From Patescibacteria group bacterium (lineage in GTDB: Bacteria > Patescibacteriota > Patescibacteriia > XYB2-FULL-38-15): a DNA stretch of 64,000 nt. Below are positions 18,971 through 37,266 of the stretch, in pieces (position 1 is the first letter of the stretch; every line of letters begins with the position of its first letter). Location: the NCBI GenBank assembly GCA_041650995.1, contig JBAZJZ010000002.1, positions 13,344 to 77,343 of the forward strand, read 5' to 3'. The translations under genes and the position numbers were made by a program. The notes under the pieces are model-generated. The model saw only the letters and a list, made by a program, of their open reading frames with translations, did no database searches and was not told the origin of the DNA.

Positions 18971-19975
18971 ATGAAAAAAATTTTTTTCGTGAGTTCGCTT
19001 GCCGCTTTAATTTTTGCGTTAGCGCCGATTTCCGTATCTGCCATAACGGTTTCCCCGCCAATCATTGAATTTGACGCGCGGCCAGGAGACACGATTGTTG
19101 ACACCATTAAATTGTATAACGAAACAAGGGAAGCGCAGACTTTGACTGGCGCAGTACAAAGTTTTAAGGCGTTGAATGAAACTGGAGCGCCAGCCTTTCT
19201 TCCTCCTGAAGAATCGACTGATTTGGCGACTTGGCTAAAGCTTGATGAATCTACGGTTTCCTTGGCGGCCGATGAAAGAAAAGATATTTTATTTAGCATC
19301 GCCGTTCCCCTCAATGCGGAACCTGGTGGCCACTACGCCGGAATTCTTTGGACACCGGGCGGCTCGACCACGCTTCAAGGAAGCGGCGTTGGCGTTACCA
19401 TTAAAACCGGAACATTAATTTTAGTCAGAGTCGCGGGGGACATTACTGAGACGGGCAGATTAGTCAGTTTCACGGCAGACAGATCCTCTTATAATTATTT
19501 GCCCGCGAATTTTTCTTTTCGTTTTGAAAATTTGGGCAATGTTCACTTAAAACCAGTCGGCGCGATTGAAATTAGTAATTTATTGGGGAGAAAAGTTACA
19601 TCTCTTCCGGTGAACGGAGATTTATCAAATGTCCTTCCAGAGTCAATTAGAAAATTTGACGCGACTTGGCAGAAAACAGAAGTTCCTCGCGGCGCGTCCG
19701 AGTGGCAAAAAGAAAGAGAAAATTTTGCTTGGGGTAAATATACAGCAACTCTCATTTTGGATTACGGGATAGACGGACAAGAAACCACGGCATCGCTTGT
19801 CTTTTGGGTTTTTCCATGGCGCGTAACACTTTTCTATCTGGCCATAGCTCTGATCATTATTCTTCTCGTTGTTTTAGGCATCAAAAGTTATAATAAGTGG
19901 CTTATCAAAAAATATAGCCAGCAAAATAAACCAGAAGATAATCAGAAAATTGAAGATCAAAAAATTGAAGAGTAA
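18971..19975 (+). CDS. Membrane-anchored surface protein (signal peptide plus C-terminal TM anchor; DUF916-like architecture)
   Basis: N-terminal signal, C-terminal hydrophobic helix LFYLAIALIIILLVVLGI followed by charged tail. Confidence 0.55.
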   Translation: MKKIFFVSSLAALIFALAPISVSAITVSPPIIEFDARPGDTIVDTIKLYNETREAQTLTGAVQSFKALNETGAPAFLPPEESTDLATWLKLDESTVSLAADERKDILFSIAVPLNAEPGGHYAGILWTPGGSTTLQGSGVGVTIKTGTLILVRVAGDITETGRLVSFTADRSSYNYLPANFSFRFENLGNVHLKPVGAIEISNLLGRKVTSLPVNGDLSNVLPESIRKFDATWQKTEVPRGASEWQKERENFAWGKYTATLILDYGIDGQETTASLVFWVFPWRVTLFYLAIALIIILLVVLGIKSYNKWLIKKYSQQNKPEDNQKIEDQKIEE

Positions 19976-20140
19976 TTCAATTATTTCATTGATGTCCTCT
20001 GATTTTTCGGAGGACAAAACGAGTTCGTTGAATTTTCAAAAAACAAAAAACAAAAATCAAAAGTCAAAATTTGAATTTTAAAGTTTCACTTTTAATTTTT
20101 TGACGTTTGTCTTTTGAGTTTTGAATCTAGAAGGAGGCGC

Positions 20141-22424: not shown

Positions 22425-25052
22425 ATGAGGAGGATAATTTGTACAATCGCCGCAATCGGATTTAGTTTTCTTCTCGGCCATTTTGCGCTCGCCGCTCGTT
22501 TTGAATTGTCTCCGGCTTCCACGGGGTTTATTATTGGTTGTGATTCGGCGGTGAATATTGAAATAGATACCGCAGGAGAAACCTCTGACGCCGCTAATAT
22601 TTTAATTCGTTATAATCCCGCGCAAATTGAAATCCGCGACGCTAATCCATCAGCAAGCGGAATCCAAATAAGAAATGGCAACGCTTACGAAGCCTATGCT
22701 GATAATATTGTTTTGCCGGGGGAAGGGTTGATCCGCCTGACGGGATTTTCTTTTTTAGAACAACTCACGGGCAGAGCCACTTTTGGCACAATTATTTTTC
22801 GTCCGAGAGCAGGTGCGGTTGGCACTGCGTTGACCGTAGAATATGTTGCCGGCAGCACGATTGATAGTAACATTGCCGAATATTTGACAAGTGACGATCT
22901 TTTGACCGGCGTGACAAATGGTTCTTACACCTTTAGCGGCGGTTCTTGCGTGGCTGATGTTACGCCACCGAGCGTGTTAAACCCCGATCCAACGCCGGAC
23001 GAACGCGACGTACCCCTTGATACAAATGTTATTTTTGATATTCGTGACAGTCAGTCAGGAGTTGATTTGGATAGTTTAACGGTAAACGTGGATGGTATAA
23101 TTTACACGCGAGGAGGAATAAATAGATTTTCTTTTGTCGGGACTCCGGAGTCATACGCCGTGGCGATAAATCCGGACACAGATTTTACTCCGGGTGTGCC
23201 AGTACTTGTGGAAATAAACGCGGCAGATTTATCCGGAAATAGGATGACGCCTTATCGCTATATTTTTAATCAGCCAGCTGCCCCACCGCCCGAGCCGCCG
23301 TCTTGCGAAGCGCTTGGGTGTATTTCACCAGCCACTTGCACGGCCGAGCCTGTTTTGCCAGAAGAAATTACTGAAGAGCCGACCGTTCCGGAGTCACAGA
23401 GGTTAAATCTTGGAGATTTTTCATTTTATATTGCCGACGGAACCCTTCAAATTTATCCAAATAGAAATGATGAGCTTACGACTTTACAAAATTCACCACT
23501 TATAATTTCTATTTCAGAAAATAAATTTCCTCGAGAGGTGGAAAGAATAGTTTTAACCTTAAATAGTTTTTCTTACCTTTTGGGTTATAATGAAATTTCC
23601 GACGCACGGCAAACGACAATCCAAACGCCCTCTACTGCGGGAAAATTATCAAGCGTGATTTTAGTTGATTATAAAGATGGCTCTCATGACAGAATTCTTG
23701 GAACGCTTTCGCTTTTGTCGCGCGGTTTTATTTGGCAGGGAACAGCAGCAAATAAATTGTCCGGCGCCAAGGTGACGCTTTATGAGAGCACGGCGGGTTC
23801 CAGAGTTTGGGATGCCACTCCTTATCATCAAATCAATCCACAAATAACGGACGCTTCTGGTCAGTTCGCTTTCCTGGTTCCGCCGGGGCGATATTATTTA
23901 CTTGTCCAAAAGGACGACTACCGTGATCAAACCACATCGGTTTTTGAAATAGCAAACAACGTTGTTAATCAAAGTGTAGAAATTCTTATAAAACCGCCGT
24001 CGCTTTCCGAAGTTTGGAACCCCGAAGGGCCGATTACTGAAAATATCCAGAATGTTGCGAAAAATTTAGGAGAAAAAACAATTTACGCCTCTGAGATTGT
24101 CCGCAAAGATGTTTTGGACAATCCTGAAGTAGAAAAAAATAATGAAAGTATTGCCGTGCCGACCGTAGCCGCGGTCGCGATCGTAAGTTATGGAACAGCA
24201 ATTTCTCTTGGCTCGCTTTTACCATTTTTACAATTGATTTTTACCCAGCCGCTTCTCCTTCTTTTCCCAAAACGAAGAAAAGGTTGGGGCATTGTTTATC
24301 ATTCTTTATCAAAAATGCCGGTTGATCTGGCAATAGTTCGTTTGTATGAAAAAGTGACAAACCGCCTGGTCCAAACTCGCGTCACGGATAAGGAAGGCCG
24401 TTTTGCTTTCTTTGTCCAGCCGGGTCAATATTTTATCAAGGTTGTTAAACCAAATTTTGCTTTCCCGTCCAATTTTGTAAAAGATATAAAAGAAGATGTT
24501 AAATATTTAGATATTTATCACGGCGAAGAAATTACGGTGACGGAAAAAAATACGCTCGTGACGCCGAACATTCCGATTGATCCGGTAGAGGGCACAGCTA
24601 AACCTGATAAAAAAATTGTTCTCGCGCATTTTGGAAGAAAGGCACAAAACATCATCGCGCCGCTCGGCATTCTTGCTGCTGCTATTTCGGTTTTAATTTC
24701 GCCGCAACTTTGGATGGTCGCGGTTCTGGCTGGCCACTGCCTTCTGTACGCACTTTTTAGACGTTTGGCCAGAAGCAAAAAACCAAAGAGCTGGGGCATT
24801 GTTTACGAAAATCAAACAAAGGCGCCGGTGGGGCTCACAGTGGCAAGAATTTTTGAAACGGAATACAATAAGCTTTTGGAAACTCAAGTTACGGACGGTC
24901 GCGGGCGATATTCGTTCTTGGTTGGCAATAATGCTTATTATGTGACATTCAGCAAGCCTGGCTTTGCGCCGAAACGGACTGAGACGATTGATCTTCGCGG
25001 GAGAAAAGAAGGCGCGGCCGTAGGGTTGGATGTGGGGTTGGATAAAGTATAG
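22425..25052 (+). CDS. Large surface protein: N-terminal cohesin-like beta-sandwich, three carboxypeptidase-regulatory-like (CarboxypepD_reg) domains, two internal TM segments
   Basis: Signal peptide; repeated WGIVY...VTD(K/G)(E/R)GR(F/Y)(A/S)F...PG.Y modules at about 23760, 24290, 24790. Confidence 0.55.
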   Translation: MRRIICTIAAIGFSFLLGHFALAARFELSPASTGFIIGCDSAVNIEIDTAGETSDAANILIRYNPAQIEIRDANPSASGIQIRNGNAYEAYADNIVLPGEGLIRLTGFSFLEQLTGRATFGTIIFRPRAGAVGTALTVEYVAGSTIDSNIAEYLTSDDLLTGVTNGSYTFSGGSCVADVTPPSVLNPDPTPDERDVPLDTNVIFDIRDSQSGVDLDSLTVNVDGIIYTRGGINRFSFVGTPESYAVAINPDTDFTPGVPVLVEINAADLSGNRMTPYRYIFNQPAAPPPEPPSCEALGCISPATCTAEPVLPEEITEEPTVPESQRLNLGDFSFYIADGTLQIYPNRNDELTTLQNSPLIISISENKFPREVERIVLTLNSFSYLLGYNEISDARQTTIQTPSTAGKLSSVILVDYKDGSHDRILGTLSLLSRGFIWQGTAANKLSGAKVTLYESTAGSRVWDATPYHQINPQITDASGQFAFLVPPGRYYLLVQKDDYRDQTTSVFEIANNVVNQSVEILIKPPSLSEVWNPEGPITENIQNVAKNLGEKTIYASEIVRKDVLDNPEVEKNNESIAVPTVAAVAIVSYGTAISLGSLLPFLQLIFTQPLLLLFPKRRKGWGIVYHSLSKMPVDLAIVRLYEKVTNRLVQTRVTDKEGRFAFFVQPGQYFIKVVKPNFAFPSNFVKDIKEDVKYLDIYHGEEITVTEKNTLVTPNIPIDPVEGTAKPDKKIVLAHFGRKAQNIIAPLGILAAAISVLISPQLWMVAVLAGHCLLYALFRRLARSKKPKSWGIVYENQTKAPVGLTVARIFETEYNKLLETQVTDGRGRYSFLVGNNAYYVTFSKPGFAPKRTETIDLRGRKEGAAVGLDVGLDKV

Positions 25053-25114: not shown

Positions 25115-28100
25115 ATGTTTAGTTCAGGAGAAGAAAAACCGAATATTAGAATACCATCCCAAGGCGGAACCAACTTGACTCTGTTGGTGTTTGTCTTGGG
25201 TATTTTGTCATTAACAAGTATTGGGATAATGACGCTTTCTGTTGTGAAACAACTCCGGCCAACAGCTTTTACGGCGATTAATAAGCAATTAAACTATCAA
25301 GGTAAATTACAAAATAGCGGAGGGATTACGGTGGCGGATGGTAATTACTTAATGAAGTTTTCTATTTATGATGCGGCTTCCGGTGGGTCGCGGCTTTGGA
25401 CAGAATGTGGGACGACCGGTACGCCGACTGCCCGTACAGTCGCGGTCGCGAACGGGGTTTTTTCCGTAATGCTTGGCGATACAAATTCCGATTCTTGTCC
25501 GGGTGGAACCGATTCAAACGCCATCAATTTAGATTTTAATAGTGATAGTTATTATCTTGGTCTAACCGTGGAATCGGATGCGGAAATGGAACCAAGAAAA
25601 AGAGTTGGCGCTTCGGGCTACGCTTTCAACGCCGATTTATTGGATGGACTTAACACTTCCGCCGCCGGCGGTTCGTTCGCTTTTGTGCCGGTGACAGACG
25701 GAAGCGGACATTTAACTTTGACGCAAAATTTAACTTTGGGTGGAGTGATGAAGGCGAGTGACGGCGCTGTCGGCGCTCCGAGCTATACATTTACAAGCGA
25801 CCTTGATACGGGGCTTTACTATTCAGCAACACAAATAAATGTTGGTGTTGGCGGAGCAGCGGTGGCAAACGTAAGTGCTTCAGGATTAGCCGTAGACACG
25901 GTCAAAACTTTAACCGCAACAACATTAACTTTAAAAGGTACTGTTGCCGACGGTGGAACTGCGGTTGGTGCAACAATTGGTTCCAACAATACTCTTTCCA
26001 CTGCCGGGGCGAAACTTGTTAGTTTTGTAAATAACACTACCGAAAAAGCATATATTGATAAAGACGGCGTGGGGTATTTTTCTGGTGGAAATTTTTCCGG
26101 CCTCTCTGCTTCATCCGCGGTCTATACTGACGCTTCAAAAAATTTAACTTCAACTGCTCCGACTTCCGGCTCAATCGGATACTGGTCTCGCACGAGCACA
26201 ACTTTGTCTCCGGCGACGGCGAATGATGTTGTCGCAGTTACTGGTAATTCCGGAGATCTCTTAACTTTAACTTCAACTGCCACGGGTGCGGACAACAAGG
26301 CTTTAAACATTGCCGCCTCTGGCGCGACAACTGGCACAGACTACGGCGCATACATTTCAAACACCGGCGCGGGGACAACAAATGTGGGCCTCTATGTCAC
26401 GGCCTCTGGTGCGGTGACAAATAATTACGCCGCGATTTTCGCCGCAGGAAATGTTGGTGTTGGTATAACTTCGCCGGCTTACACTCTTGATGTTTCCTCA
26501 TCGGGTACGAGAGCAGTTAATGCTATCACATCAAACAATAGCGGTTATGCAATTTACGGAACAGCTTCCGCCACCGGCGCAGTCACAAACTATGGTGTTT
26601 ACGGCGCGACGGCTGGTGATAGTGGCCGCGGCGTTTATGGTACTGCTTCAGCCACTGGCGCAGTCACAAACTACGGCGGATATTTTTCTTCCGCGGGAAA
26701 TAGTGGCCGCGGCGTTTATGGTACTGCTTCTGCTACCGGCGCAGTCACAAACTACGGCGGTCTTTTTTACGCAGCAGGAAATACCGGGTATGGTGTTTAT
26801 GGTCACGCTACGGCTACCGGCGCAGTAGGTAATACAGGAGGTTATTTTAGGGCTGACGGAGGTAGTGGCGTTGGCGTAACAGGCACAGCCCCAACCACCG
26901 GCGCAGTCACAAACTACGGCGGATATTTTTCTTCCGCGGGAAATAGCGGTCGAGGTATTTCAGCAGTCGCCACGGCCACTGGCGCGGTTACAAACATAGG
27001 CGGTGCTTTTTCCTCTGCTGGCGACACAGGCATTGGCGTGCAGGGCTCGGCAACGGGTAGTGGAGGTGTAAATTACGGTGTGTATGGTACCACATCTTCC
27101 GCTACCGGCTGGGGTGGTTATTTTTCCGGCGGGCTTGGTTTGTATGCCTCTGCAGCTCGCATCAATTCTCTTACCGCCTCCTCTGCAGTTTACACTGATG
27201 CCTCAAAAAATTTAACTTCAACAGCTCCGACTTCCGGCGCGCTTGGATATTGGTCTCGCACAGGCACGGTTTTAAGCCCAACAACTTCTGGCGATACTGC
27301 TACAGTGGCGGGGTTGAACGTTAATTTTGGTCCAATCACCAATGCTTACGTCGCCATTAACCCCTGGTATCAAAATTCTATTGGTTCCGCAAATGGCATA
27401 GGTCTTCCAATGAATCGTTTGCTTGGTTCCAATACCGGCCGCCACACAGTCACAACTACTGGTTTTTCCGGCGGAACTAGTGTTTTATACGACAGTTTTT
27501 ATGATTCCGCGGCAATAATTCCTTATGGGGGAACCGGTACGGTGGAAGTTGACTTTAATCCCCAAATGGGATGGACAGATAATACGGCAAGTCCGAGTTT
27601 TACCTACGAGAATGGTATGCTCGTGATGAGTTTTTATTACACTTATTTTCCGACTAATATTACGGTGGAAATGTATCATTATAATTCCGTCTCGCTCGTG
27701 GATGAGTGGACTACAATTTATACCACGGCAAGCAATAATAAAAATCCGTTAATTGTTAATACATCACCGACAATTACTTATATTAAAAAGATCAAATTTA
27801 CTTTTTCCGGTGGTGGTGACCCGGGTTTGGGCATAAGAATTGCTGAGCTAGAATGGTTCCCAACTCGTGAAAGTTCGGCGAATCAGTTGGCCGTTATCCC
27901 AAAATATTATAATCAGAACATGGATGTTTCTTGGACGAATTTGAATATGAAAAAGACGACTGATTGGAGCACGACCGCGACAATTTCAAATGCCGGGGCC
28001 GCGTACTTTGTCGGACCAGTCGGCATTAATGATACTTCCGCGGACGCATCTTTAGAGGTTGTCAATGACGGTTCGGGAGATTCGTTCTTGGTCGCCGACA

Positions 28101-31100
28101 CAAACGACGGCGACACTACGCCATTTGTTATTCAGGCGGACGGAGATGTTGGCATTGGTACGGCGGCTCCGGTTAGTTTGTTACATTTAGTAAAAGATTC
28201 AACTTATAACAGTGAAAATACGGGAGCTATTAAAATAACAGACTCAACTTTGACTGACACAGGTCTTATTATAGGAACGGATGCGACTAATGATATTGGT
28301 TACATTCAATCCCTAGACCCCGGAACGAGTTATACAACTCGGCCATTGATATTAAATCCAAACGGGGGTTATGTCGGCATCAGTGATATTTCTCCCGCTG
28401 CGCTTTTTACTGTTGGTAGTGGCGACCTTTTTCAGGTTAATTCTTCCGGCGCTATCGCCGCGGCAACGGGCATTATTTCCAGCGGCACAATTCAGTTTAC
28501 TGGCCTCACGGCTTCTTCCGCCGTCTACACTGACGCTTCAAAAAATTTAACTTCCACCGCTCCGACTTCCGGCGCGATCGGATATTGGTCTCGGAGCGGA
28601 ACAACTTTATCTCCGGCAACGGCCAACGATGTTGTTTCAGTTTCGGGTACCGGCGCGATCGCGATTACCGGGACAAGTTCGGCAGCTGGTGGATATGGTA
28701 TTTACGGCACTGCCACAGACGCAACAGCAGTAGCAAATTACGGCGGATATTTTATAGCCGCAGGAACGGGGAGCGGCACAGCAGGTGTTTACGGCGAATC
28801 TACAGCGACAGGCGGTTTTAGTCCATTTTATGGTGGTTATTTTACCGCGGCTGGTAATCTTGGAGTCGGTGTCCAGGGCGTGGCTACGGCCACAGCCTTT
28901 GCTACAAATTATGGCGTTTACGGTCAGGCTGATGGAGATACGGGCGTTGGTGTTAGGGGTTTAGCCAGCGGGACTGAGGGGATAAATTACGGCGGTTATT
29001 TTTGGTCAAATGGTCCGGGCGGCTATGGAGTTTATGGCCGGGCTAACTCTGGTACGGGTACAACTTATGGTGTTTATGGCGAAGTCATTTCTTCAAGCGG
29101 TTGGGCGGGATATTTTGACGGCGGGCTTGGTTTGTACGCTTCCGCGGCGAGAATAGATTCTCTCTCTGCCTCCTCCGCCGTCTACACTGACGCTTCAAAA
29201 AATTTAACTTCCACCGCTCCGACTTCCGGCGCGATCGGATATTGGTCTCGGAGCGGAACAACTTTATCTCCGGCAACGGCCAACGATGTTGTTTCAGTTT
29301 CGGGTACCGGCGCGATCGCGATTACCGGGACAAGTTCGGCAGCTGGTGGATATGGTATTTACGGCACTGCCACAGACGCAACAGCAGTAGCAAATTACGG
29401 CGGATATTTTACCGCGGCTGGGACAGGCACTTTGACTGCCGGAGTGTATGGTGAAGTTACTGCCACAGCGGACAATATTGCCGGAGTTTACGGGAAAGCC
29501 ACCAACACTGGCGCTTACATAAATTACGGCGGCGCGTTTTTTGCCAATGGTGAAAATGGTCGTGGTGTTTATGGCGAGGCGGTTTCCAATGCCGCAGCTA
29601 CAAATTATGGAGGGTACTTTGTCGGCGGCGGCACAGCTGCCAACACAGCTGGCGTTTACGGACAGGCGACAAATACTGGCGCGGTAGCGAACTACGGTGG
29701 GTATTTTTTGGCGGAAGGTACGGGTTCTGCCGCGGCTGGCATCTATGGCGAAGCTTCTGGCGCCGGCTCGGTTTATGGTGTTCAAGGAGCTGCAACTGAT
29801 ACTGGTGCAGTAGCAAACTATGGCGGATATTTTACCGCAGCAGGAACAGTAACTGGAGCAACCGGGGTTTATGGCGAAGCAAGTGGCGCAACAAATTTAG
29901 CATTGGGTGTTCATGGAGTTGCTTCAGCCACTGGCGCAGTCACAAACTACGGCGGTGTGTTTACCGGTGCCGGCAATACGGGACGCGGCGTTTATGGCGA
30001 AGCCACGGCCACCGGCGCTTACACAAACTACGGCGTTTATGGCATGGCTGTTGGCGATACTGGCAGGGCTGTTTATGGAACGGCCCAGGCCACTACTAGC
30101 GCAGTGAATTATGGAGGTTATTTTGTGACGCACGGAGATGGCACTTTTGCAGCTGGTGCTTATGGCGAAGCTTCTGGCGCCGGCTCGGTTTTCGGCGTTA
30201 TTGGTTATGCTTCAAACAGCGGCGCGGTCACAAATACTGGCGGAGCATTTACGGCCAACGGTGAAACTGGCCGGGGCGTTTATGGCCAGGCTTCAAATTC
30301 TGCTGCCACTGTAAACTATGGTGGTTATTTTATAGCAGATGGTGCAGGCGCAGGAACAGCTGGTGTTCGTGGCATTGCAAACGGAGGGGCCGCAGTGTAT
30401 GGCGTCTATGGTTCTACTATAAGTGCGAATACTGGTGCAAGCGGTGTCTATGGCGAGGCTTCTGGCGCGGCCAGCGAGGTTATTGGCGTTCAGGGCGCAG
30501 CATCCAGTTCTGGCGCAGTAGCAAATTACGGCGGATATTTTGCTGCATTTGGGTCGGGTACTGGTGCAAGTGGTGTTTATGGCTTAGCCACGGCTGTTGG
30601 TATAGTCTATGGCGTTCAGGGGCGAGCGTCGGCTGTTGATAATGCTACAAGTTATGGTGGATATTTTACAACAGAAGGATATACCGGTCGCGGTGTTTAC
30701 GGTTACGCTGAGTACATCGGCGCCACAGTAAACTACGGCGGTTATTTTGAAGCAAATGGTGCAGGCGCGGGCACAGCCGGCGTGCGCGGTATTGCAAATG
30801 CTAATGCCGCTGTTTACGGCGTCTATGGTTCAACCTCTGGCCAAGCTTCTGGCGCAGTTGGTGTCTATGGCTTGGCTTCTGCTGCAGCAGATGTTATTGG
30901 CGTCCAAGGCGCAGCAACAAGTGCCGGCGCTTATGAAAACTACGGCGGATATTTTTATGCTGCGGGTAATTCGGGTAGGGGTGTTTATGGAACGGCAGTA
31001 GCCTCAGGCGCGGTTACAAACTACGGTGGATATTTTCAGGCAAGTGGTAATTCCGGCAGCGCTGTCTATGGATTAGCATCTGCCACTGGCGCAGTCACAA

Positions 31101-34100
31101 ACTACGGCGGGAATTTTCGGGCTGATGGAGATTTAGGTATTGCTGTTTCTGGTTGGGCTTCTGCAAGTAGCGCAACAGCGAATTATGGTGGGAAATTTTT
31201 AGCAGGGGGTACGGGAGGAGCATATGGGGTATATGGCGAAGCAACTGGCCTTTCGGGTACAAATTATGGTGTTTATGGGAAAGGTTCAGTAGGTGTTTAT
31301 GGTTATGTTAGCGCAACGCAGTATGGTTATTTAGGGGATTCCACCTACGGCGTTTATGGCCGCGGTACAATTGGTGTTTATGGAACAGACGGGACTAGAT
31401 ATGGACAATTGGGGTATGCTTCGGCAGGTGTTTATGGAACAGACGGGACTAGATATGGACAATTGGGTACGGGAAGTTATGGTGTTTATGGTTATTATGA
31501 CGCCACGCATTCAGGCTATATTGGTGGCGCGAGTTATGGAATTTACGGAACCGGTGCTGATGGCGAGGGGGTGCACGGCGAAGCAACGACTGGTTATGGC
31601 GTTCGCGGTAATGCAACAACCGGTTATGGTACGTCAGGATTTTTGTCTGGTGAAACGGGACGAGCAGTTTGGGGTTCTGCTTACAACGCGAGCGGTACAA
31701 CAACTTATGGTGGATATTTTAGTTCGTCCGGCACTTCTGGTTATGGTGTTTATGCGGAAGCAACTGCGAAAAGCACTGTTTATGGTGTTTACGGGGTTGC
31801 TTCAGATGCAGGAGCGGGCACAAGTTACGGAGGGTATTTCACATCTGCTGGCACGACAGGCCGCGCAGTTTACGGCTCAGCCTCAACTACTGGAGCAACA
31901 ACAGCTTATGGCGGTTATTTTACATCTGCTAGTGATTACGGTCGTGGTGTTTATGGTGAGGCTACTGATACTGCCGCAGTTCAAAATTATGGCGGTTATT
32001 TCTCCGCCGCGGGCGGGGCGGGCATTGGCGTTTATGGTGTAGCTTCTGCCGCAAGTACTGTTTATGGCGGCTATTTTGAAGCTACGAATACAGGAGCTGT
32101 GACAAATTACGGCGTTTATGGGAAAGCCGCCGGAGACACCGGTTATGGAGTTAGGGGTGAGGCTTCTGACACGGGCGCGGTAGCAAATTATGGCGGATAT
32201 TTTTCCGCAGCTGGAACAGGTGGCGGAGTGGGTATTTACGGGTCCGCGACGGGCGCTTCTGGTACAAACTATGGAGTCTACGGCGCGGTGACTTCAGCCG
32301 CTGGCTGGGCAGGGTATTTTACCGGGGGCTATGGTTTGTATGTCAGCGGTTCAGCTAGTCAAATGACCGGTGCCGCTTCTGGCCCGACTTTAACGGTTGC
32401 TGCAACCTCCGTCTCCGCAAATAATATTGCTTTAAAAGTTACTTGGGCTGACAGTTATCTCACAACCACCGACGGCGGCCCTTTAAAAATCGTTTCCACA
32501 ACTGACACCGGTTTTACCACTACGGGTGATGCCGCGACCAGACGCGTTGGTTTAATCCAGGTTGACGCGAATGTTACTTCAGCCTCAAGCGGAAATTTTA
32601 TTGCCTTTAACTCTGATGTTAATGGCACTCCGGACGCAGAATTCAGGGTGTCAATGGCTGGTGCGACTTATGCTGATGGCGCTTATTCATCGGCTGGCGC
32701 TGACTTAGCCGAAGTTTTTGATGTGAGTGATTTATCTTTATCTTTGGGAGATTTGGTGGTGGTTGACAATGTTACTGGTAAACTTAAAAAATCATCCGCT
32801 GCTTATGAAGAAGGATTAGTTGGGATCGTGACTGATGCGACAATGGCAGCTTTTATCGGCGGAGATTCAGATGGTGACCTCGGCCCGGATCAAAGAGTTA
32901 TTACTTTAATTGGTAGAATGTCTTTGACAAAAGTTAATGATGAAAATGGCACAATTAATCCGGGAGATTTGTTAACGTCTTCATCAATGCCTGGCGTAGC
33001 AATGAAAGCCACAAAACCCGGTTCGGTGATTGGTCGGGCATTAGCGTCATGGAGCGGCCCGGGGCAAGGAACGATTGAAGTTTATGTTAATCAAAAATGG
33101 CATTCAGGCGGAACGATTACTACTGATGGCACGATTTCTTTTTTCAATGATGATTTTACTTTCAATAAAACAGAAACAGCGACAGAAATTATTCAGGGTT
33201 ATAACTCCAAAGGTTTAACTTTTCGCGGTTCTGGTTGGGATGGCGCTACGGCGCAAAATGTGGAAATGAAAATTAATAATGTTGTCGCGAGCGCGTCAAA
33301 TTACAAATTAGCAGTTTTAAATAATGCAGGGCAGGAAGTTGCTTATCTTGATCAGGCCGGCGCGTTTGGTCTTTCCGGGAAATTTTATCCGGCCTCGCCA
33401 ACAGGCGCGCAAACCGATGCTTACATTTTCTATCGTAACAATCGCATAAGAACGAACGCCGCTGGATGGGCGACAGGCTCGTTTGATTTTGCCGAAATGT
33501 TCTTATCGCACGAATTGCTTGAGGCTGGAGACGTGGTTGTGTTAGACGAGGCGACAAATGAGTATGTAAAAAAATCAACCACTACTTATAATAATATGGC
33601 GCTCGGCATTGTTTCTACTGAGCCGGGATTTTTAGCCGGAGCCAATGTTGATTTTGACGACCCTTCGGCCGATCAAGGTTATCCGATCGCCCTGGCTGGC
33701 CGCGTGCCGACAAAAGTTTCTGCGGAAAACGGTCCGATTCGGCCTGGCGACTTTTTAACAACTTCCGCGACGCCTGGCGTGGCCATGAAAGCGACTGAGT
33801 CGGGTTTGATTATTGGAACAGCGCTTGAAAGTTTTGATGGCCCTGGTGTTGGTTTAGTGAAAGTTTTCGTTAATCTCTCTTGGTATAACGTTATGGGGGA
33901 GACGACGCCAGTCGGAGAATTGGCACAGCTCACACTTACTGGTGATTTAAATATGAATGGCAATTATATTTTAAATGTCGGGAAGATTGTTGGGTTGGAT
34001 GAAAAATGGAGCATTGATGAAAATGGTATCTTGAAAGTAAAATTAATTGCTGAGGACGCGGGCGAGAAAGAGATGTTTGGAGTAACTTCAGATAAAGTAG

Positions 34101-34570
34101 AATTAACTTTGTCCGGATCTTCGCGGTTGGAGAACGGAACAAAGATGATTGATCTAAGTTTACTTGACCCAGAGTTTATCAAACATATTTCCGCGGAGAC
34201 TGCTCTAAAAATAATTGTGACATTAACCGAACCGGCTAACGGCGTCTATGTCGCGGAAAAAACTGCTTATAGTTTCCGAGTAGCGGAATTGAATGCCGGA
34301 ACTTCTGACGCGGCCTTTGATTGGATTGTGATTGCGAGACGAAAGGGCTACGAAGATCCGCCAACAACACCCGCGCCAAGCGAACCAGCGCCGTCTGCTC
34401 CAAGCGAACCCCCACCAAGCGAACCAGCGCCAGAAACTCCTCCTTCTGAACCAGCTCCGTCAGAGCCTGTGCCAACTGAGCCAACTCCAGAAGTTCCTCC
34501 AGTAGAATCTGCCCCAAGTGAACCGGCACCGTCTGAACCGGCGCCAAGTGAGCCAGCGCCAGCGCCGTAG
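25115..34570 (+). CDS. Giant (3151 aa) membrane-anchored YG-repeat fibre protein with 4 repeated modules and two C-terminal chaperone-like modules; Pro/Glu/Ser-rich tail
   Basis: N-terminal signal-anchor. About 60 degenerate G(V/I)YG...NYGGYF repeats. Module-start motif SASSAVYTDASKNLTSTAPTSG at 26100, 27180, 28500, 29160. C-terminal PxEP-repeat tail. Confidence 0.8.
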   Translation: MFSSGEEKPNIRIPSQGGTNLTLLVFVLGILSLTSIGIMTLSVVKQLRPTAFTAINKQLNYQGKLQNSGGITVADGNYLMKFSIYDAASGGSRLWTECGTTGTPTARTVAVANGVFSVMLGDTNSDSCPGGTDSNAINLDFNSDSYYLGLTVESDAEMEPRKRVGASGYAFNADLLDGLNTSAAGGSFAFVPVTDGSGHLTLTQNLTLGGVMKASDGAVGAPSYTFTSDLDTGLYYSATQINVGVGGAAVANVSASGLAVDTVKTLTATTLTLKGTVADGGTAVGATIGSNNTLSTAGAKLVSFVNNTTEKAYIDKDGVGYFSGGNFSGLSASSAVYTDASKNLTSTAPTSGSIGYWSRTSTTLSPATANDVVAVTGNSGDLLTLTSTATGADNKALNIAASGATTGTDYGAYISNTGAGTTNVGLYVTASGAVTNNYAAIFAAGNVGVGITSPAYTLDVSSSGTRAVNAITSNNSGYAIYGTASATGAVTNYGVYGATAGDSGRGVYGTASATGAVTNYGGYFSSAGNSGRGVYGTASATGAVTNYGGLFYAAGNTGYGVYGHATATGAVGNTGGYFRADGGSGVGVTGTAPTTGAVTNYGGYFSSAGNSGRGISAVATATGAVTNIGGAFSSAGDTGIGVQGSATGSGGVNYGVYGTTSSATGWGGYFSGGLGLYASAARINSLTASSAVYTDASKNLTSTAPTSGALGYWSRTGTVLSPTTSGDTATVAGLNVNFGPITNAYVAINPWYQNSIGSANGIGLPMNRLLGSNTGRHTVTTTGFSGGTSVLYDSFYDSAAIIPYGGTGTVEVDFNPQMGWTDNTASPSFTYENGMLVMSFYYTYFPTNITVEMYHYNSVSLVDEWTTIYTTASNNKNPLIVNTSPTITYIKKIKFTFSGGGDPGLGIRIAELEWFPTRESSANQLAVIPKYYNQNMDVSWTNLNMKKTTDWSTTATISNAGAAYFVGPVGINDTSADASLEVVNDGSGDSFLVADTNDGDTTPFVIQADGDVGIGTAAPVSLLHLVKDSTYNSENTGAIKITDSTLTDTGLIIGTDATNDIGYIQSLDPGTSYTTRPLILNPNGGYVGISDISPAALFTVGSGDLFQVNSSGAIAAATGIISSGTIQFTGLTASSAVYTDASKNLTSTAPTSGAIGYWSRSGTTLSPATANDVVSVSGTGAIAITGTSSAAGGYGIYGTATDATAVANYGGYFIAAGTGSGTAGVYGESTATGGFSPFYGGYFTAAGNLGVGVQGVATATAFATNYGVYGQADGDTGVGVRGLASGTEGINYGGYFWSNGPGGYGVYGRANSGTGTTYGVYGEVISSSGWAGYFDGGLGLYASAARIDSLSASSAVYTDASKNLTSTAPTSGAIGYWSRSGTTLSPATANDVVSVSGTGAIAITGTSSAAGGYGIYGTATDATAVANYGGYFTAAGTGTLTAGVYGEVTATADNIAGVYGKATNTGAYINYGGAFFANGENGRGVYGEAVSNAAATNYGGYFVGGGTAANTAGVYGQATNTGAVANYGGYFLAEGTGSAAAGIYGEASGAGSVYGVQGAATDTGAVANYGGYFTAAGTVTGATGVYGEASGATNLALGVHGVASATGAVTNYGGVFTGAGNTGRGVYGEATATGAYTNYGVYGMAVGDTGRAVYGTAQATTSAVNYGGYFVTHGDGTFAAGAYGEASGAGSVFGVIGYASNSGAVTNTGGAFTANGETGRGVYGQASNSAATVNYGGYFIADGAGAGTAGVRGIANGGAAVYGVYGSTISANTGASGVYGEASGAASEVIGVQGAASSSGAVANYGGYFAAFGSGTGASGVYGLATAVGIVYGVQGRASAVDNATSYGGYFTTEGYTGRGVYGYAEYIGATVNYGGYFEANGAGAGTAGVRGIANANAAVYGVYGSTSGQASGAVGVYGLASAAADVIGVQGAATSAGAYENYGGYFYAAGNSGRGVYGTAVASGAVTNYGGYFQASGNSGSAVYGLASATGAVTNYGGNFRADGDLGIAVSGWASASSATANYGGKFLAGGTGGAYGVYGEATGLSGTNYGVYGKGSVGVYGYVSATQYGYLGDSTYGVYGRGTIGVYGTDGTRYGQLGYASAGVYGTDGTRYGQLGTGSYGVYGYYDATHSGYIGGASYGIYGTGADGEGVHGEATTGYGVRGNATTGYGTSGFLSGETGRAVWGSAYNASGTTTYGGYFSSSGTSGYGVYAEATAKSTVYGVYGVASDAGAGTSYGGYFTSAGTTGRAVYGSASTTGATTAYGGYFTSASDYGRGVYGEATDTAAVQNYGGYFSAAGGAGIGVYGVASAASTVYGGYFEATNTGAVTNYGVYGKAAGDTGYGVRGEASDTGAVANYGGYFSAAGTGGGVGIYGSATGASGTNYGVYGAVTSAAGWAGYFTGGYGLYVSGSASQMTGAASGPTLTVAATSVSANNIALKVTWADSYLTTTDGGPLKIVSTTDTGFTTTGDAATRRVGLIQVDANVTSASSGNFIAFNSDVNGTPDAEFRVSMAGATYADGAYSSAGADLAEVFDVSDLSLSLGDLVVVDNVTGKLKKSSAAYEEGLVGIVTDATMAAFIGGDSDGDLGPDQRVITLIGRMSLTKVNDENGTINPGDLLTSSSMPGVAMKATKPGSVIGRALASWSGPGQGTIEVYVNQKWHSGGTITTDGTISFFNDDFTFNKTETATEIIQGYNSKGLTFRGSGWDGATAQNVEMKINNVVASASNYKLAVLNNAGQEVAYLDQAGAFGLSGKFYPASPTGAQTDAYIFYRNNRIRTNAAGWATGSFDFAEMFLSHELLEAGDVVVLDEATNEYVKKSTTTYNNMALGIVSTEPGFLAGANVDFDDPSADQGYPIALAGRVPTKVSAENGPIRPGDFLTTSATPGVAMKATESGLIIGTALESFDGPGVGLVKVFVNLSWYNVMGETTPVGELAQLTLTGDLNMNGNYILNVGKIVGLDEKWSIDENGILKVKLIAEDAGEKEMFGVTSDKVELTLSGSSRLENGTKMIDLSLLDPEFIKHISAETALKIIVTLTEPANGVYVAEKTAYSFRVAELNAGTSDAAFDWIVIARRKGYEDPPTTPAPSEPAPSAPSEPPPSEPAPETPPSEPAPSEPVPTEPTPEVPPVESAPSEPAPSEPAPSEPAPAP
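28497..28760 (+). repeat. About 260-bp near-perfect intragenic direct repeat, copy 1 (copy 2 at 29157-29420)
   Basis: Identical spurious ORFs 28585..28821 and 29242..29454 in ORF track; identical nucleotide strings beginning ctcacggcttcttccgccgtctacactgacgcttc. Confidence 0.85.
29157..29420 (+). repeat. About 260-bp near-perfect intragenic direct repeat, copy 2
   Basis: See copy 1. Confidence 0.85.
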
Positions 34571-34794
34571 TGGTTATTAAAAATTGTAAACGAGTTGTGC
34601 CTTCGGGTACGGGCCATAACTCGTATATAATAGCAGCTCCCCACCGCAAGGTGAGGAGTTGTTGTATTTATTGATTTTTTATAAATCAACTGATTAAAAT
34701 TATTTAATTTTTGTGGTATAATTAAAAAGGAAGAGGTTGGGGAAAGAAGCAGATCCCTAACTTTGAATATCTATCTCCTAATATTTATAATTGT

Positions 34795-37266
34795 ATGTTT
34801 GATTCAATTCAAAACAGTCACCCTCATAAACAAAATGGCAGGAATAAAAATTCTTTGCGCCCGTTAGTTTTAATCTTGGGATTTTTTGCTATTGCGAGCC
34901 TTGGCGTTATTGGTTTTGCTTTGTTGCAAAAATGGAGTCCTCCAGTTTCTGCCGCGCCGGGAATTTATAAAGTTTTAAATTACCAAGGAAAGCTGGAGGA
35001 CTCTGGCGGCATTACCGTGGCTGATGGAGCGTATAATATAAAATTTACGATTTATAATGCCCCCGCGGGCAATGTTGTCCTTTGGACCGCGCGTGAATCA
35101 GACGCTTGCGGCGCTCCTTTTAATCCTTCGGCAAAATCAGTCACAACTTCGCTTGGTATTTTTTCCACTCAACTTGGCGAGTCGGGTGATTGTCCAATAA
35201 ATTTAGATTTTAATGATGATTCATATTATCTTGGCATAACTGTTGGCGCGGATTCGGAAATGACGCCGAGAAAAAGAATCGGGGCAGCTGGGTATGCTTT
35301 TAACGCGGATTTAATGGATGGTCTGGATTCTTCTGAAATTGGAGGCGCAACTGCTTTTGTTCCGGTAACAGATTCAAGCGGGAATTTTGTTTTAACTGGC
35401 AATGTTACTTTTGATACAAATACTTTTTTTCTTGATTCCACAAATGACAATATTGGAATTGGTACGGCCGCCCCGGATACTGATCGGACCGTAGATTTAA
35501 CGACTGCTAAAAAATACGGAGTTTATTCCGTGACAAGTTCGGCGGCAAAGAACACTGTAGCAGTTTATGGTCAGTCAACTGATGCAACTAACAATACTAG
35601 ATACGGTGGATATTTTACTGCGGCAGGTGGCGGAGGTCGAGGCGTTTTTGGTGAGGCTTCAGAGTCAGGAAATCCAATGATTGCAAATTATGGCGGTTAT
35701 TTTACCTCGGCGGGAGATTGGGGGTTGGGCGTTTATGGAGAAGCTTCTGCGAGCGGTTTGGGGACAAGTAATACGGGGGGATCTTTTACTGCGGCGGGAG
35801 ACACTGGTTACGGAGTTAGAGGTGTAGCTTCCGGGACAGCCGGGGTAAATTATGGTGGCTATTTTATATCATACGGGCCCGGCGGATATGGAGTTTATAG
35901 CTGGGCGAATGATACCAGCGCCGCGGCGAATTACGGAGGGTATTTCCGGGCTAGCGGCCAAGGCGGATATGGAGTTTATGGTATAGCATCAGATACGACT
36001 GCCACGGCTAATTACGGTGGATATTTCACCGCGGCTGGCACAGGTGCTTTATCAAGCGGTGTCTATGGTGAGGCATCTGGTTCTGGAACCGTTATAGGTG
36101 TGAGGGGATATGCCCCAGATCTTACTGCAGGAGTTACAAACTACGGCGGTTATTTTTCCGCCCAAGGCGGCACAGCCCAAGCTGTTTTTGGTGATGCTAC
36201 AAATACCGGAGCCGAAATAAATTACGGTGGTTATTTTACTGCGCGCGGTTCAGGGGCTGGAACATCAGGAGTCTATGCCGAGGCAAGCGGGGCAGCATCT
36301 GTTTACGGCGTCTATGGGCTTGCTTCCGATAGTACTGCGGTTACAAACTATGGTGGATATTTTACCGCGGCTGGCACAGGCGCGGGCACAAGCGGTGTTT
36401 ACGGTTTAGCCTCGGGAGCAGCTAGCGTTTACGGTGTTAGAGGCGAGGCCCCGGCTACTGGCGCGGTACAAAATTTTGGTGGATATTTCACCGCGGCTGG
36501 CGATACAGCCATAGCGGTTTATGGTGCGGCTACGGCCATAGCTGGAGCAAGTAATATGGGAGGATTTTTTAAAGCAGACGGCAACGCAGCTGATTCCTAC
36601 GGCGTTTATGCCCTTGCTAGTGGATCCGGAAACAATTATGGTATTTTTGCCTCAACCCTTTCTGTGACTGGTTGGGCAGGATTTTTTAATGGAGGCCGAG
36701 GAATTTATGCTTATCGTTTTTCAATCAACGACGGAATTACGGCGGTTGATTATAACACAATTGGTCCAGCACTCGCAGGCCATACCGGCGGAGGAGAAAT
36801 TACAGATCAGAACGATCTTTTTATCAATGGTAGCTTGGAAGTTGACGGAGAGGCCTGGCTTGATGGCGGTCATACTGACTTAGCGGAAATGGTTGCTTAC
36901 AGCGGCGAGGGCGAGGCTGGTGATGTTATTGTCATTGATGATCAAAATGATAATTCGGCAAAACTTGCAACCAAACCTTATGATCAAAGTGTTCTTGGGA
37001 TTATCTCTACCAAGCCAAGTTTAATTATCACAGGCGACATTAGAGAGGGAAAACTTTTGGCCGTCGCTGGCCGCGTGCCGACAAAAGTAACAAATATCAA
37101 TGGTATGATTCATCGTGGAGATTTGCTGACAACCTCTTTGATCCCTGGCCACGCCATGAAAGCGACTGCGCCAGGTCCGATTGTTGGTAAAGCTTTGGGT
37201 GAATGCAACGAGGGTCAGTGTGTTATTTGGGTTTTTCTAAATGTGAGTTGGTACGGTGGGATATAA
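34795..37266 (+). CDS. YG-repeat fibre protein paralogue (823 aa) sharing N-terminal anchor domain and C-terminal module with giant ORF
   Basis: N-terminal (L/V)NYQGKL..SGGITVADG.Y..KF.IY and DSYYLG.TV..D.EM.PRKR.GA.GYAFNADL.DGL conserved with 25115 ORF; C-terminal DLAEMV...GRVPTKV...PGHAMKATAPG module. Confidence 0.8.
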   Translation: MFDSIQNSHPHKQNGRNKNSLRPLVLILGFFAIASLGVIGFALLQKWSPPVSAAPGIYKVLNYQGKLEDSGGITVADGAYNIKFTIYNAPAGNVVLWTARESDACGAPFNPSAKSVTTSLGIFSTQLGESGDCPINLDFNDDSYYLGITVGADSEMTPRKRIGAAGYAFNADLMDGLDSSEIGGATAFVPVTDSSGNFVLTGNVTFDTNTFFLDSTNDNIGIGTAAPDTDRTVDLTTAKKYGVYSVTSSAAKNTVAVYGQSTDATNNTRYGGYFTAAGGGGRGVFGEASESGNPMIANYGGYFTSAGDWGLGVYGEASASGLGTSNTGGSFTAAGDTGYGVRGVASGTAGVNYGGYFISYGPGGYGVYSWANDTSAAANYGGYFRASGQGGYGVYGIASDTTATANYGGYFTAAGTGALSSGVYGEASGSGTVIGVRGYAPDLTAGVTNYGGYFSAQGGTAQAVFGDATNTGAEINYGGYFTARGSGAGTSGVYAEASGAASVYGVYGLASDSTAVTNYGGYFTAAGTGAGTSGVYGLASGAASVYGVRGEAPATGAVQNFGGYFTAAGDTAIAVYGAATAIAGASNMGGFFKADGNAADSYGVYALASGSGNNYGIFASTLSVTGWAGFFNGGRGIYAYRFSINDGITAVDYNTIGPALAGHTGGGEITDQNDLFINGSLEVDGEAWLDGGHTDLAEMVAYSGEGEAGDVIVIDDQNDNSAKLATKPYDQSVLGIISTKPSLIITGDIREGKLLAVAGRVPTKVTNINGMIHRGDLLTTSLIPGHAMKATAPGPIVGKALGECNEGQCVIWVFLNVSWYGGI

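Follow-up and report, generated by a model that had tools for sequence, protein, structure and literature searches.

A giant repeat protein and its paralogue as candidate tail-fibre-like surface adhesins of a Patescibacterium

The 64,000-nucleotide stretch of Patescibacteria DNA analysed here (the window) holds a gene for a 3151-aa repeat protein beside one for an 823-aa paralogue, raising the question of what such proteins do in a tiny bacterium that is probably host-dependent. The reading that we favour, and consider reasonably probable, is that both are trimeric, tail-fibre-like cell-surface adhesins, analogues of the MAT fibres of Bdellovibrio. The anatomy given for the two genes in an earlier note on this DNA was confirmed apart from three details (an exact duplicate, a tandem period and the shared termini), and its interpretation was supported in part.

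Architecture of the two proteins

The open reading frames lie exactly at 25115-34570 for the giant and 34795-37266 for the paralogue, both on the forward strand like every feature given below. Both are open, the giant without internal stop over 9.4 kb, and its orthologues were intact in L003, L004, L005, L006, P0273 and P0277. A Kyte-Doolittle scan found a single N-terminal hydrophobic segment in each protein, agreeing with the signal-anchor predicted before (aa ~18-45 of the giant, with 25172..25249 covering aa ~20-45, and ~20-46 of the paralogue), and no second TM-like segment in the giant. The conserved N-terminal domain already recognised was placed at aa ~55-190 (25277..25684) and is a beta-sandwich common to the paralogue (34966-35364), the equivalent residues of which (60-165) were modelled with pLDDT 80-89; no Pfam or PDB relative was found for it. 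The fibre-like region that follows (aa 191-331, 25685..26107) is conserved together with the N-domain (68-89% among orthologues).

In the stalk of the giant a junction motif (L[ST]ASSAVYTDASKNLTSTAPTSGx[IL]GYWSR) occurs four times in almost identical form, starting at aa 331, 687, 1132 and 1351 (26105..26194, LSASSAVYTDASKNLTSTAPTSGSIGYWSR; 27173..27262; 28508..28597; 29165..29254), in agreement with the four modules said to open with SASSAVYTDASKNLTSTAPTSGxIGYWSR, and the motif recurs at 73-88% identity in tail-fibre-like proteins from other phyla. The many degenerate YG repeats described were also found, with 30 [YFIT]GGxF anchors at a dominant period of 27 aa (81 nt), and they form arrays at aa 481-687 (26555..27175; 27-aa units of consensus VYGxAxxxGAVxNYGGYFxAxGxxGxG with the cap WGGYFSGGLGLY at the end), aa ~1190-1351 (28682..29167, with cap) and, over about 1000 residues, aa ~1409-2410 (29339..32344, ending in the cap WAGYFTGGYGLY). 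A globular insert (aa 720-960, 27272..27994) is lineage-specific, occurring only in the close orthologues P0277, L014, L003, L005 and L013, and its profile had no match in Pfam or PDB. Because no relative of known structure was found for the YG stalk, and its AlphaFold monomer model showed short strands at low confidence (pLDDT 50-63), we simply assume that the stalk is a trimeric beta-helix or solenoid.

The C-terminal cassette of the giant begins with a G2-type intramolecular chaperone domain (aa 2530-2665, 32702..33109, starting D2530-L-A-E2533) and continues with a small beta domain (aa ~2680-2780, 33152..33454; pLDDT ~90-96 and strongly conserved in orthologues), a second G2-type domain (aa 2791-2925, 33485..33889, starting D2791-F-A-E2794; 80-88% identical among orthologues) and a C3 domain that is beta-rich with short helices (aa ~2955-3080, 33977..34354; conserved at ~80%). 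The Pro/Glu/Ser-rich PxEP tail is present as reported (aa 3091-3151, 34385..34567), and neither a hydrophobic segment nor a sorting motif was found after it. In the homologue P0122 the tail region is Extensin_1-like. The paralogue consists of signal-anchor, N-domain, YG repeats (35527-36714), cap and a single terminal G2-type domain (36877-37263, starting D695-L-A-E698) homologous to both internal G2 domains of the giant. The two proteins had been said to share both termini; they share signal-anchor, N-domain and YG repeats, but the last ~230 aa of the giant (C3 domain and PxEP tail) are absent from the paralogue.

Chaperone domains and known fibres

To our knowledge, G2-type and S74 chaperones are known solely from the ends of trimeric phage-type fibres and spikes. 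The G2 domain profile matched the phi29 pre-neck appendage (tail spike) gp12 in the PDB (6qz9_A, E 1.2e-6; 3gqh_A, E 1.7e-6), and the D-[LF]-A-E of the G2 domains aligned to DFAEYFES of gp12. The structure 3gqh is that of the cleaved gp12 fragment and its first residue is exactly the aligned Asp, while chain 3suc has DFAQ at this position. The corresponding Pfam family PF11962 (Peptidase_G2; 3GQH, 3SUC, 6QZ9) was matched by 18 of 28 G2 domain members and spans the motif in homologues of the giant's C-terminus, and DxAE or DxSE is kept in 243 of the 256 G2 domains of the family representatives; the window's own G2 domains scored below the Pfam gathering score of 25 (best 16.1 bits, E 0.0078), and scans at full length matched nothing. 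Among 650 homologues found with the paralogue, distant ones (P0025, P0086) have the N-domain and YG repeats followed by a Peptidase_S74 tail-fibre chaperone at the end. The fibre nature proposed for both proteins is thus supported, indirectly, as they carry gp12-type chaperones at their ends and distant homologues end in S74, both of which are fibre-terminal types.

The C-terminal domain of gp12 is an intramolecular chaperone that is cleaved away once folding is done (PMC3357383). In the layout proposed here, each chain would be exported and retained in the cytoplasmic membrane by its signal-anchor, N-terminus in and C-terminus out, with the ~135-aa conserved beta domain as a cell-proximal base, followed by a long Gly/Ala/Thr/Tyr-rich stalk of 27-aa repeats broken by the junction motifs and, in the giant, additionally by the globular insert. 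The chaperone terminating the chain (one in the paralogue; in the giant the cassette of G2, small beta domain, second G2, C3 and Pro-rich tail) would, by analogy with gp12, set off trimer formation and the folding of the stalk, and autocleavage before the Asp of D-x-A-E (D2530 and/or D2791 in the giant, D695 in the paralogue) would then remove it. The gp12 model leaves the tandem chaperones and the conserved ~230-aa C3/Pro-rich tail unexplained, and the cassette may also serve another purpose, one kept in the mature protein.

The resemblance to gp12 is that of an auto-chaperone domain by which a long, beta-rich fibre is terminated at its C-terminus, but gp12 is part of a virion whereas the window proteins appear cellular and membrane-anchored, and they lack a pectin-lyase-like beta-helix body. 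A shared plan, in which a chaperone at the C-terminus serves a trimeric fibre, is also the likeness to Peptidase_S74 fibres and spikes (K1F endosialidase, T5 pb1) and to bacterial “tail fiber domain-containing proteins”, although neither window protein has an S74 domain or its SDxxxK motif. Trimeric autotransporter adhesins of the YadA type have a comparable long, repetitive, Gly-rich beta stalk, and YadA_head repeats stand beside YG repeats in the distant homologues P0054 and P0064; however, the window proteins have no YadA_head match and no C-terminal beta-barrel anchor, their YG unit differs from that of YadA_head, and their bacterium has no outer membrane for insertion.

The closest described analogue is the mosaic adhesive trimer (MAT) fibre of Bdellovibrio bacteriovorus (PMC10769870). 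Like MAT fibres, the window proteins are bacterial, predicted to be surface-exposed and phage-tail-fibre-like, with a ~130-aa conserved beta-rich domain right after the export signal (a likeness of description), a mosaic, variable body and a C-terminal self-cleaving chaperone, found in many MATs and predicted here; S74 ends MATs and the distant homologues of the paralogue, and the Patescibacterium, like Bdellovibrio, probably lives on other bacteria. They differ from MAT fibres in the G2 type of the chaperone, doubled in the giant, in the TM-segment anchor, in the stalk of 27-aa Gly/Tyr repeats and in a size of up to 3151 aa. Attachment to host cells, as suggested in the earlier note, is plausible, fitting both this analogy and the adjoining Pam-like pilus genes.

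Stalk plasticity and exact repeats

A G2-like profile search returned 31,920 cluster representatives, and family statistics were taken from the best 126 new ones among these. They are typically 1-5.8 kaa long (median 1890 aa, longest 5766 aa), with two G2 copies in 122 of the 126 and an N-domain that falls inside the first 120 residues in 95; an N-terminal TM-like segment is present in 88 of the 113 family representatives with complete N-termini. The giant belongs, as an oversized member, to a protein family that is very large and unstudied. Seven orthologues, all intact, range from 1894 to ~3272 aa, having conserved ends (68-89% identical) and a reshuffled middle in which junction motifs number 0-4 and YGGxF units 7-30, and that of L003 has an exact repeat of its own, of 446 nt. 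The idea of a hot spot for recombination and copy-number change thus gains support between species, and the stalk would evolve as modules are duplicated in frame, lost or changed by gene conversion, altering its length and surface from lineage to lineage. Classical phase variation, also suggested earlier, gained no support: the repeat offsets are all in frame, and neither a homopolymer >7 nt nor a usable simple-sequence tract was found.

It is possible, though rather unlikely, that the proteins are instead general envelope, matrix or S-layer-type structural components serving spacing, biofilm formation or particle adhesion without recognising host cells. The huge Gly/Ala/Thr/Tyr-rich stalk with its extensin-like Pro-rich tail, the constitutive-looking chromosomal position of the locus and the great abundance of the family in CPR bacteria, as expected of a basic envelope component, would all suit such a role, and domain and profile searches found no recognisable lectin or receptor-binding domain. 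A middle that changes fast between species while the ends are conserved is, however, the pattern of a receptor-binding fibre rather than a scaffold, and the linkage to pilus-like genes and the binding of prey glycans by MAT fibres (PMC10769870) also point to adhesins.

The giant gene had been credited with an exact duplication of about 260 bp (28497-28760 = 29157-29420). An exact direct repeat is present, but of 238 bp (28517-28754 = 29174-29411), at an offset of 657 nt or 219 codons; the former positions imply an offset of 660 and so are out of register, with only 80 of 264 bases matching. The 238-bp block lies within 300 nt of 92% identity, and in its right flank 22 of 56 bases are mismatched, 16 of these at codon position 3. 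The supposed tandem 42-bp duplication is likewise real, but consists of a 41-nt sequence present in two exact copies (31373-31413, 31427-31467) with a spacing of 54 nt and an 18-aa unit (GVYGTDGTRYGQLG...), TRF giving a period of 54 and 2.2 copies. The repeats in the giant are far beyond chance, as every offset is a multiple of 3 and the reading frame stays open.

Repeat copy number is as assembled and verifiable with reads only, and the fragility of assembly foreseen in the earlier note was evident: in seven short-read metagenome contigs of relatives (L012-L017, L020) the frame was traced onward from the N-terminus of the orthologue, and every one of these contigs stops within the gene, one exactly at a junction motif. 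This would be expected if repeats had been collapsed, expanded or homogenised and neither the 3151-aa length nor the 238-bp block were real, as would the conspicuous identity of that block against 60-80% among the other repeats and the lack of a database record of the exact protein elsewhere. Such a partial artefact is nonetheless rather doubtful given the 9.4 kb of open frame with in-frame offsets, orthologues of 3118 and ~3272 aa whose parts follow each other in the same way (an 886-kb single-contig chromosome carries one of these orthologues) and the independent exact repeat in L003.

The locus and its Pam-like genes

The fibre genes close a conserved locus that opens with a PamT-like gene (17076..17759; NF058579, E 4.1e-17 at 62 bits, the cut-off being 240) and a gene with a Pam-pilin-like C-terminal domain (17816..18901; NF058581, E 3.9e-10, 40 bits against 55), all Pam-like matches being below the curated NCBIfam cut-offs. 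Next come a secreted protein whose C-terminus carries a TM helix (18971..19975), an architecture described for the PamC/PamD chaperones (bioRxiv 10.64898/2026.03.03.709456) and suggesting a similar assignment, a secreted protein that is rich in fn3 and pilin-like at its N-terminus (20114..22405) and a CarboxypepD_reg-repeat secreted protein (22425..25052), which in every related locus directly precedes the fibre gene. L004, L005 and L016 keep the whole gene order (PamT-like, pilin-like, chaperone-like, fn3, CarboxypepD_reg, giant, paralogue). A tail fibre-like protein consistently co-localised with pam operons has been described (same preprint) and is similar by description; the lineage of the window is Falkowbacteria-like, in contrast to the Saccharimonadia or Microgenomatia of the Pam system. 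As the fibre genes end a locus that begins with Pam-pilus-like genes, the fibres probably act with the pilus in contacting other cells.

The same gene order, and the co-localisation noted in the preprint, might mean that the fibre is a physical component of the pilus, such as its tip or anchor. This is unlikely, since the Pam pilin C-domain model matched neither the giant nor the paralogue, the fibres have their own membrane anchor and the logic of a trimer assembled with the help of a chaperone is not that of donor-strand exchange; a scan that performed no better than chance also placed, between giant and paralogue, a promoter-like site and a hairpin resembling a terminator that would separate the two. 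That the genes encode a prophage or tailocin tail fibre is very improbable, for although phage tail fibres and decoration proteins are the origin of the G2 and S74 chaperones, of the junction motif and of all fold matches, neither protein matched a PHROG family, both have the N-terminal anchor, capsid, portal and terminase genes were not found near the locus, and at least 7 CPR genomes have the locus in synteny on the chromosome, flanked by housekeeping genes (RmuC, tRNAs, YchF, S6, SSB, EF-P, RecA).

Surface adhesins acting beside a pilus would also be consistent with the loci of three more distant CPR genomes, which hold the set in a shorter form, with a PamT-like gene, a ~270-320-aa ORF, a CarboxypepD_reg protein, a double-G2 protein and a protein with 12 TM-like segments and C-terminal TPRs. 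The gene for the latter lies directly after the fibre gene in L050-L052, and a few genes downstream in L001 and in the window (40976..43327).

Two probable fibre proteins and their putative C-terminal chaperone domains

The giant fibre-like protein described in an earlier note on this DNA is encoded by an open reading frame that runs without interruption from 25115 to 34570 on the + strand (3151 amino acids); its paralogue (823 amino acids) is encoded at 34795-37266, also on the + strand. The feature is real and the description in that note was largely right. A single hydrophobic segment at the N-terminus of the giant (aa ~18-45) agreed with the proposed signal-anchor, a Pro/Glu/Ser tail was indeed found to cover aa 3091-3151, and the four proposed modules correspond to four near-identical junction motifs, L[ST]ASSAVYTDASKNLTSTAPTSGx[IL]GYWSR, from aa 331, 687, 1132 and 1351 (ASSAVYTDASKNLTSTAP at 26105-26194, which is aa 331-360, and at 27173-27262, 28508-28597 and 29165-29254). 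The paralogue had been said to share both termini with the giant; the N-terminus is common to the two and the terminal domain of the paralogue also occurs in the giant, but the last ~230 residues of the giant are absent from it. As assembled, the stalk of the giant contains 30 [YFIT]GGxF anchors with a dominant spacing of 27 aa (81 nt in the DNA) and a unit consensus of VYGxAxxxGAVxNYGGYFxAxGxxGxG, and is arranged as three repeat arrays, each closed by the cap W[AG]GYFxGGxGLY. The junction motif is conserved far above the surrounding sequence, and proteins that resemble tail fibres, with annotated origins in Elusimicrobia, Bacteroidales and other phyla, have it at 73-88% identity.

The giant can be placed in a very large Patescibacteria (CPR) family of tail-fibre-like, putatively self-chaperoning surface proteins, among which its size is exceptional, and it is encoded in a locus resembling that of the CPR pilus system Pam. 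The C-terminal region of the giant (aa 2411-3090) had 626 homologues, mainly from Uhrbacteria or unassigned Patescibacteria, many of which carry Pfam PF11962 (Peptidase_G2, the phi29 gp12-type intramolecular chaperone domain, hereafter G2), and in these the PF11962 match spans a motif D-[FLI]-A-E. The window proteins themselves gave no Pfam PF11962 match in full-length or C-terminal scans; their best G2 domain (aa 2766-2930 of the giant) scored 16.1 bits (E 0.0078), under the PF11962 gathering score of 25 bits, and homologues at 35-43% identity exceed that score (P0122 at 37.1 bits, P0146 at 37.0 and P0134 at 33.7). As the window's domains score under the Pfam gathering score, their G2 membership rests on profile and fold evidence and not on a curated threshold. 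A phmmer search of PDB sequences with the C-terminal region of the giant gave no match; a G2 profile made from 28 domain sequences, three of them from the window, matched phi29 gp12 in the PDB (6qz9_A, E 1.2e-6; 3gqh_A, 1.7e-6; 3suc_A, 4.7e-5). The cleavage-site motif of gp12 (D-FA-E, in DFAEYFES) aligned with D2530-LA-E2533 and D2791-FA-E2794 of the giant and with D695-LA-E698 of the paralogue. The motif Asp is the first residue of 3GQH, the crystallised cleaved C-terminal fragment of gp12, and in the 3SUC chain Gln replaces the motif Glu; this Asp and Glu presumably make up the catalytic pair in MEROPS family G2. Modelling of aa 2411-3090 of the giant with AlphaFold (from 75 sequences) gave a mean pLDDT of 80, rising to ~95 across both G2 domains, and the window's G2 domains were found to have the fold of the gp12 C-terminal fragment; the next-ranking structure matches were decoration and cement proteins of phages, which share this fold, and the Foldseek result was concordant.

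The C-terminal domain of gp12 is an intramolecular chaperone, without which the chains aggregate, and it is cleaved away once the trimeric spike has folded (PMC3357383). The C-terminal G2 chaperone or chaperones of the window proteins would likewise drive trimer folding and would then probably be removed at the D-x-A-E sites. The gp12 model gives no account of what the giant's doubled cassette and tail are for.

In an hmmsearch of 1.84 billion cluster representatives with the G2 profile, 31,920 proteins passed E <= 1e-3, of which 5,138 also passed E <= 1e-30. Among the best 126 new representatives of these 31,920 matches, 122 have exactly two G2 copies and the median length is 1890 aa (51 are at least 2000 aa and 13 at least 3000 aa long, with a maximum of 5766 aa). 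The N-domain lies inside the first 120 residues in 95 of the 126, a TM-like segment is found at the N-terminus in 88 of the 113 with complete N-termini, and DxAE or DxSE is retained in 243 of their 256 G2 domains, which were found without use of the motif, while the YG stalk occurs in only 5 of the 126. The family thus has conserved ends and an exchangeable middle. The same principle is seen again, with another chaperone, among the 650 homologues of the paralogue, where P0025 and similar proteins have the N-domain and YG repeats joined to Peptidase_S74, the chaperone of tail fibres and endosialidase. A 2860-aa relative (locus L018, 10001-18580) with the same N-domain, a Peptidase_S74-like C-terminus and YG repeats that are nearly absent is a further case of conserved ends and exchangeable middle.

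The YG repeat matched no Pfam family (E <= 0.01, both proteins) and no PDB sequence (phmmer, YG region). It is not the YadA_head repeat; one homologous protein, P0064, has the two types, each in a region of its own. The glucan-binding "YG repeat" (CW_binding_1, PF01473, a ~20-aa choline/glucan-binding unit) gave no Pfam match, the unit here being 27 aa, and the use of "YG repeat" in the earlier note should not be taken to mean the CW_binding_1 family. An AlphaFold monomer model of the stalk showed short strands at regular spacing with a pLDDT of only 50-63, which would be expected, without being proof of it, if the true structure were an intertwined trimer. If its ~1370 repeat residues formed 13.5-residue coils with a rise of 4.8 Å, we infer only that the stalk would be ~50 nm long. 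The paralogue model, which was too poor across the stalk, had no more than marginal Ig-like matches when compared in full with the PDB by Foldseek. The insert in the giant (aa 720-960) was considered as a discoidin or carbohydrate-binding jelly-roll, from its sequence "IRIAELEWF", but a 5-sequence profile had no PDB or Pfam match; the insert is confined to close orthologues and so a deep alignment was impossible. Nothing usable came from Pfam, NCBIfam or PHROG, either for the full proteins or for four sub-regions, the sole match being a sub-threshold DUF929.

Repeats and length variation in the giant gene

Seven orthologues, including the giant, are all intact ORFs, with lengths of 3151, ~3272, 3118, 2953, 2412, 2214 and 1894 aa, 0-4 junction motifs and 7-30 YGGxF units; identity among them is 68-89% across the N-terminal 331 aa and 79-88% across aa 2701-3090. 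The exact duplication of ~260 bp described previously does exist in the giant gene, but it is 238 bp long and in another register (28517-28754 = 29174-29411, an offset of 657 nt), as the coordinates first proposed imply an offset of 660, at which 80 of 264 bases match. Similarly, a local tandem repeat is present, not with the 42-bp unit reported but as two exact 41-nt copies, 54 nt apart. The 238-bp identical block falls within junction modules three and four; its right flank has 22 mismatches over 56 bases, of which 16 fall at third codon positions, and farther out the copies are unrelated in register. Such a pattern is typical of an older duplication that gene conversion has in part homogenised, unless the block was made by the assembler. 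In one orthologue (L003, 5310-6172) there is an exact repeat of 446 nt with an offset of 417 nt, an overlapping tandem that is independent of the window's 238-bp repeat, and the other orthologues have no exact repeat longer than 38 nt.

Phase variation, which the earlier note had also raised, was not upheld. Every repeat offset is a multiple of 3, homopolymers do not exceed 7 nt and no usable microsatellite or simple-sequence tract is present, and so length variation is plausible and on/off phase variation is not. The closest relative from a metagenome scan for population variants was at 88% identity, and a promoter and terminator scan gave no excess over the shuffled expectation. All seven short-read metagenome contigs that were followed from an orthologous N-terminus (L012-L017 and L020) end within the gene, one of them at a junction motif, and the family assignment accounts for the routine breakage of such genes in short-read assemblies.

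Comparison with known fibres and possible host contact

Among described systems the closest is that of the mosaic adhesive trimer (MAT) fibres of Bdellovibrio. These lie on the cell surface and have mosaic bodies and an N-terminal domain of ~130 aa that is conserved; 13 of 21 members have a self-cleaving S74 chaperone and one member binds prey glycans (PMC10769870). A similar beta-rich domain follows the export signal in the window proteins, the likeness being one of size, position and secondary structure only; the N-domain profile found no relative in the PDB or Pfam, and the MAT N-terminal domain is also said to be without a PDB relative (PMC10769870). Unlike in MAT fibres, the chaperone here is G2-type and is doubled in the giant, where a conserved C3 domain and the Pro-rich tail lie behind it, and there is a TM anchor, a YG stalk and a genetic link to Pam-like pilus genes. 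The S74 chaperone of MAT fibres (SDxxxK; PF13884) is in neither window protein but is present in distant homologues. A trimeric autotransporter adhesin (YadA) was not indicated, as the window proteins had no PF05658 and no anchor match, and their only hydrophobic segment is N-terminal.

The best-supported reading is that the giant and its paralogue would each be a membrane-anchored, tail-fibre-like surface fibre, for which a function in host contact can reasonably be inferred. How ultrasmall CPR bacteria locate and grip their hosts is, to our knowledge, largely unknown, with only type IV pili and the Pam pili, newly described, implicated so far. This locus points to a second conserved component, tail-fibre-like proteins with a recognisable, putatively self-cleaving chaperone, whose genes in several CPR lineages come directly behind those of a Pam-like pilus. 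Their G2-like domain occurs in tens of thousands of protein clusters. The assignment provides testable handles in the predicted D-x-A-E cleavage sites, the conserved base domain and the variable stalk, and if the fibres bind host envelopes then the modular stalks would be the obvious place for host-range determinants. The fibres may have a purely structural role in the envelope, and if there is no host binding they would be a well-annotated case of a very common, ordinary envelope protein family.

A wider reading, which we consider doubtful, is that there is an undescribed and very large Patescibacteria superfamily of phage-derived, self-chaperoning fibres, linked to Pam-like loci, which would be the main host-recognition device, with host range altered by module duplication and gene conversion and with a two-step doubled cassette. 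Its members may have in common a signal-anchor, a conserved base domain, a stalk that is freely exchanged and, with a Pro-rich tail, a cassette in which the gp12-type chaperone is doubled. Were this true, the fibres would be to CPR what receptor-binding proteins are to phages and MAT fibres are to Bdellovibrio, host-range change would be driven by the duplication of modules in frame and by gene conversion, as in the giant, and the doubled cassette would act in assembly or release by a new mechanism of two steps, and not as a simple chaperone that is cleaved off. That the fibre genes originate from a prophage is unlikely: PHROG gave no match, the locus keeps its chromosomal synteny and it is flanked by housekeeping genes.

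Pam-like genes and the surrounding locus

The order of the five genes upstream of the giant (17076-25052) is kept in three related loci (L004, L005 and L016). The first is PamT-like (NF058579, E 4e-17, 62 bits vs a cut-off of 240), and the second (17816-18901) has a Pam pilin C-domain (NF058581, E 4e-10, 37-40 bits vs a cut-off of 55). The third encodes a secreted protein with a C-terminal TM helix, a candidate Pam chaperone from its architecture alone, the fourth (20114-22405) an fn3-rich protein with a pilin-like N-terminus, and the last a CarboxypepD_reg-repeat protein. The set resembles a divergent Pam pilus operon, with all NCBIfam scores under their cut-offs. [quoted passage not shown] The giant and paralogue themselves matched no NCBIfam model, including NF058581 for the Pam pilin C-domain and its donor-strand-exchange fold. 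The mature N-terminus of the fn3-rich protein, SDTLSRLKISTAANH..., is common to the pilin-like gene at 17816-18901, and its C-terminal end is a dockerin-like Asp/Asn-rich repeat, DLNRDTGVNSLDINILLANL.

Three more distant CPR genomes (L050-L052) have a shorter locus, in which a PamT-like gene (E 6e-7 to 2e-8) is followed by a ~270-320-aa ORF and then by genes for a CarboxypepD_reg protein, for a protein of 900-1080 aa that has the same C-terminal cassette, and for a TPR protein with 12 TM segments. In the window a 783-aa protein (40976-43327) has ~12 TM-like segments and C-terminal TPR repeats, and this protein adjoins or stays near the fibre gene in L001 and L050-L052. No catalytic family was recognised in it and a glycosyl- or oligosaccharyl-transferase-like role is only a guess. 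Its gene lies directly 3' of the fibre gene in other CPR loci; in the window, a GC-rich stretch (38001-40704; 0.56 vs 0.35-0.48 in the surroundings) lies between it and the paralogue. This stretch, which could be an island that was inserted, carries genes for a metzincin that is lipoprotein-like (38287-38994; Peptidase_M10, E 4.7e-7) and for a protein with a DNRLRE domain (39175-40704).

The nearest relatives of the fibre genes are on contigs labelled Patescibacteria group bacterium and Candidatus Falkowbacteria, and on OZ246416.1 (L005), an 886-kb single-contig chromosome that is syntenic with the CPR window and is titled "uncultured Gammaproteobacteria bacterium", a label which is probably wrong. 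In this chromosome (as L001, 9352-9978) the giant and the paralogue are separated by an insertion, which consists of a 23S_rRNA_IVP-family gene (PF05635) and an ORF of 76 aa. The window lineage is Falkowbacteria-like and is not among the classes in which Pam pilins reportedly predominate. There is no 23S gene within the window and therefore the rRNA genes are unlinked; the bacterial 16S rRNA gene (4870-6459) is 1590 nt long vs a 1533-position model, ~57 nt extra, and is followed by tRNA-Ile, tRNA-Phe and tRNA-Pro (6669-6957).
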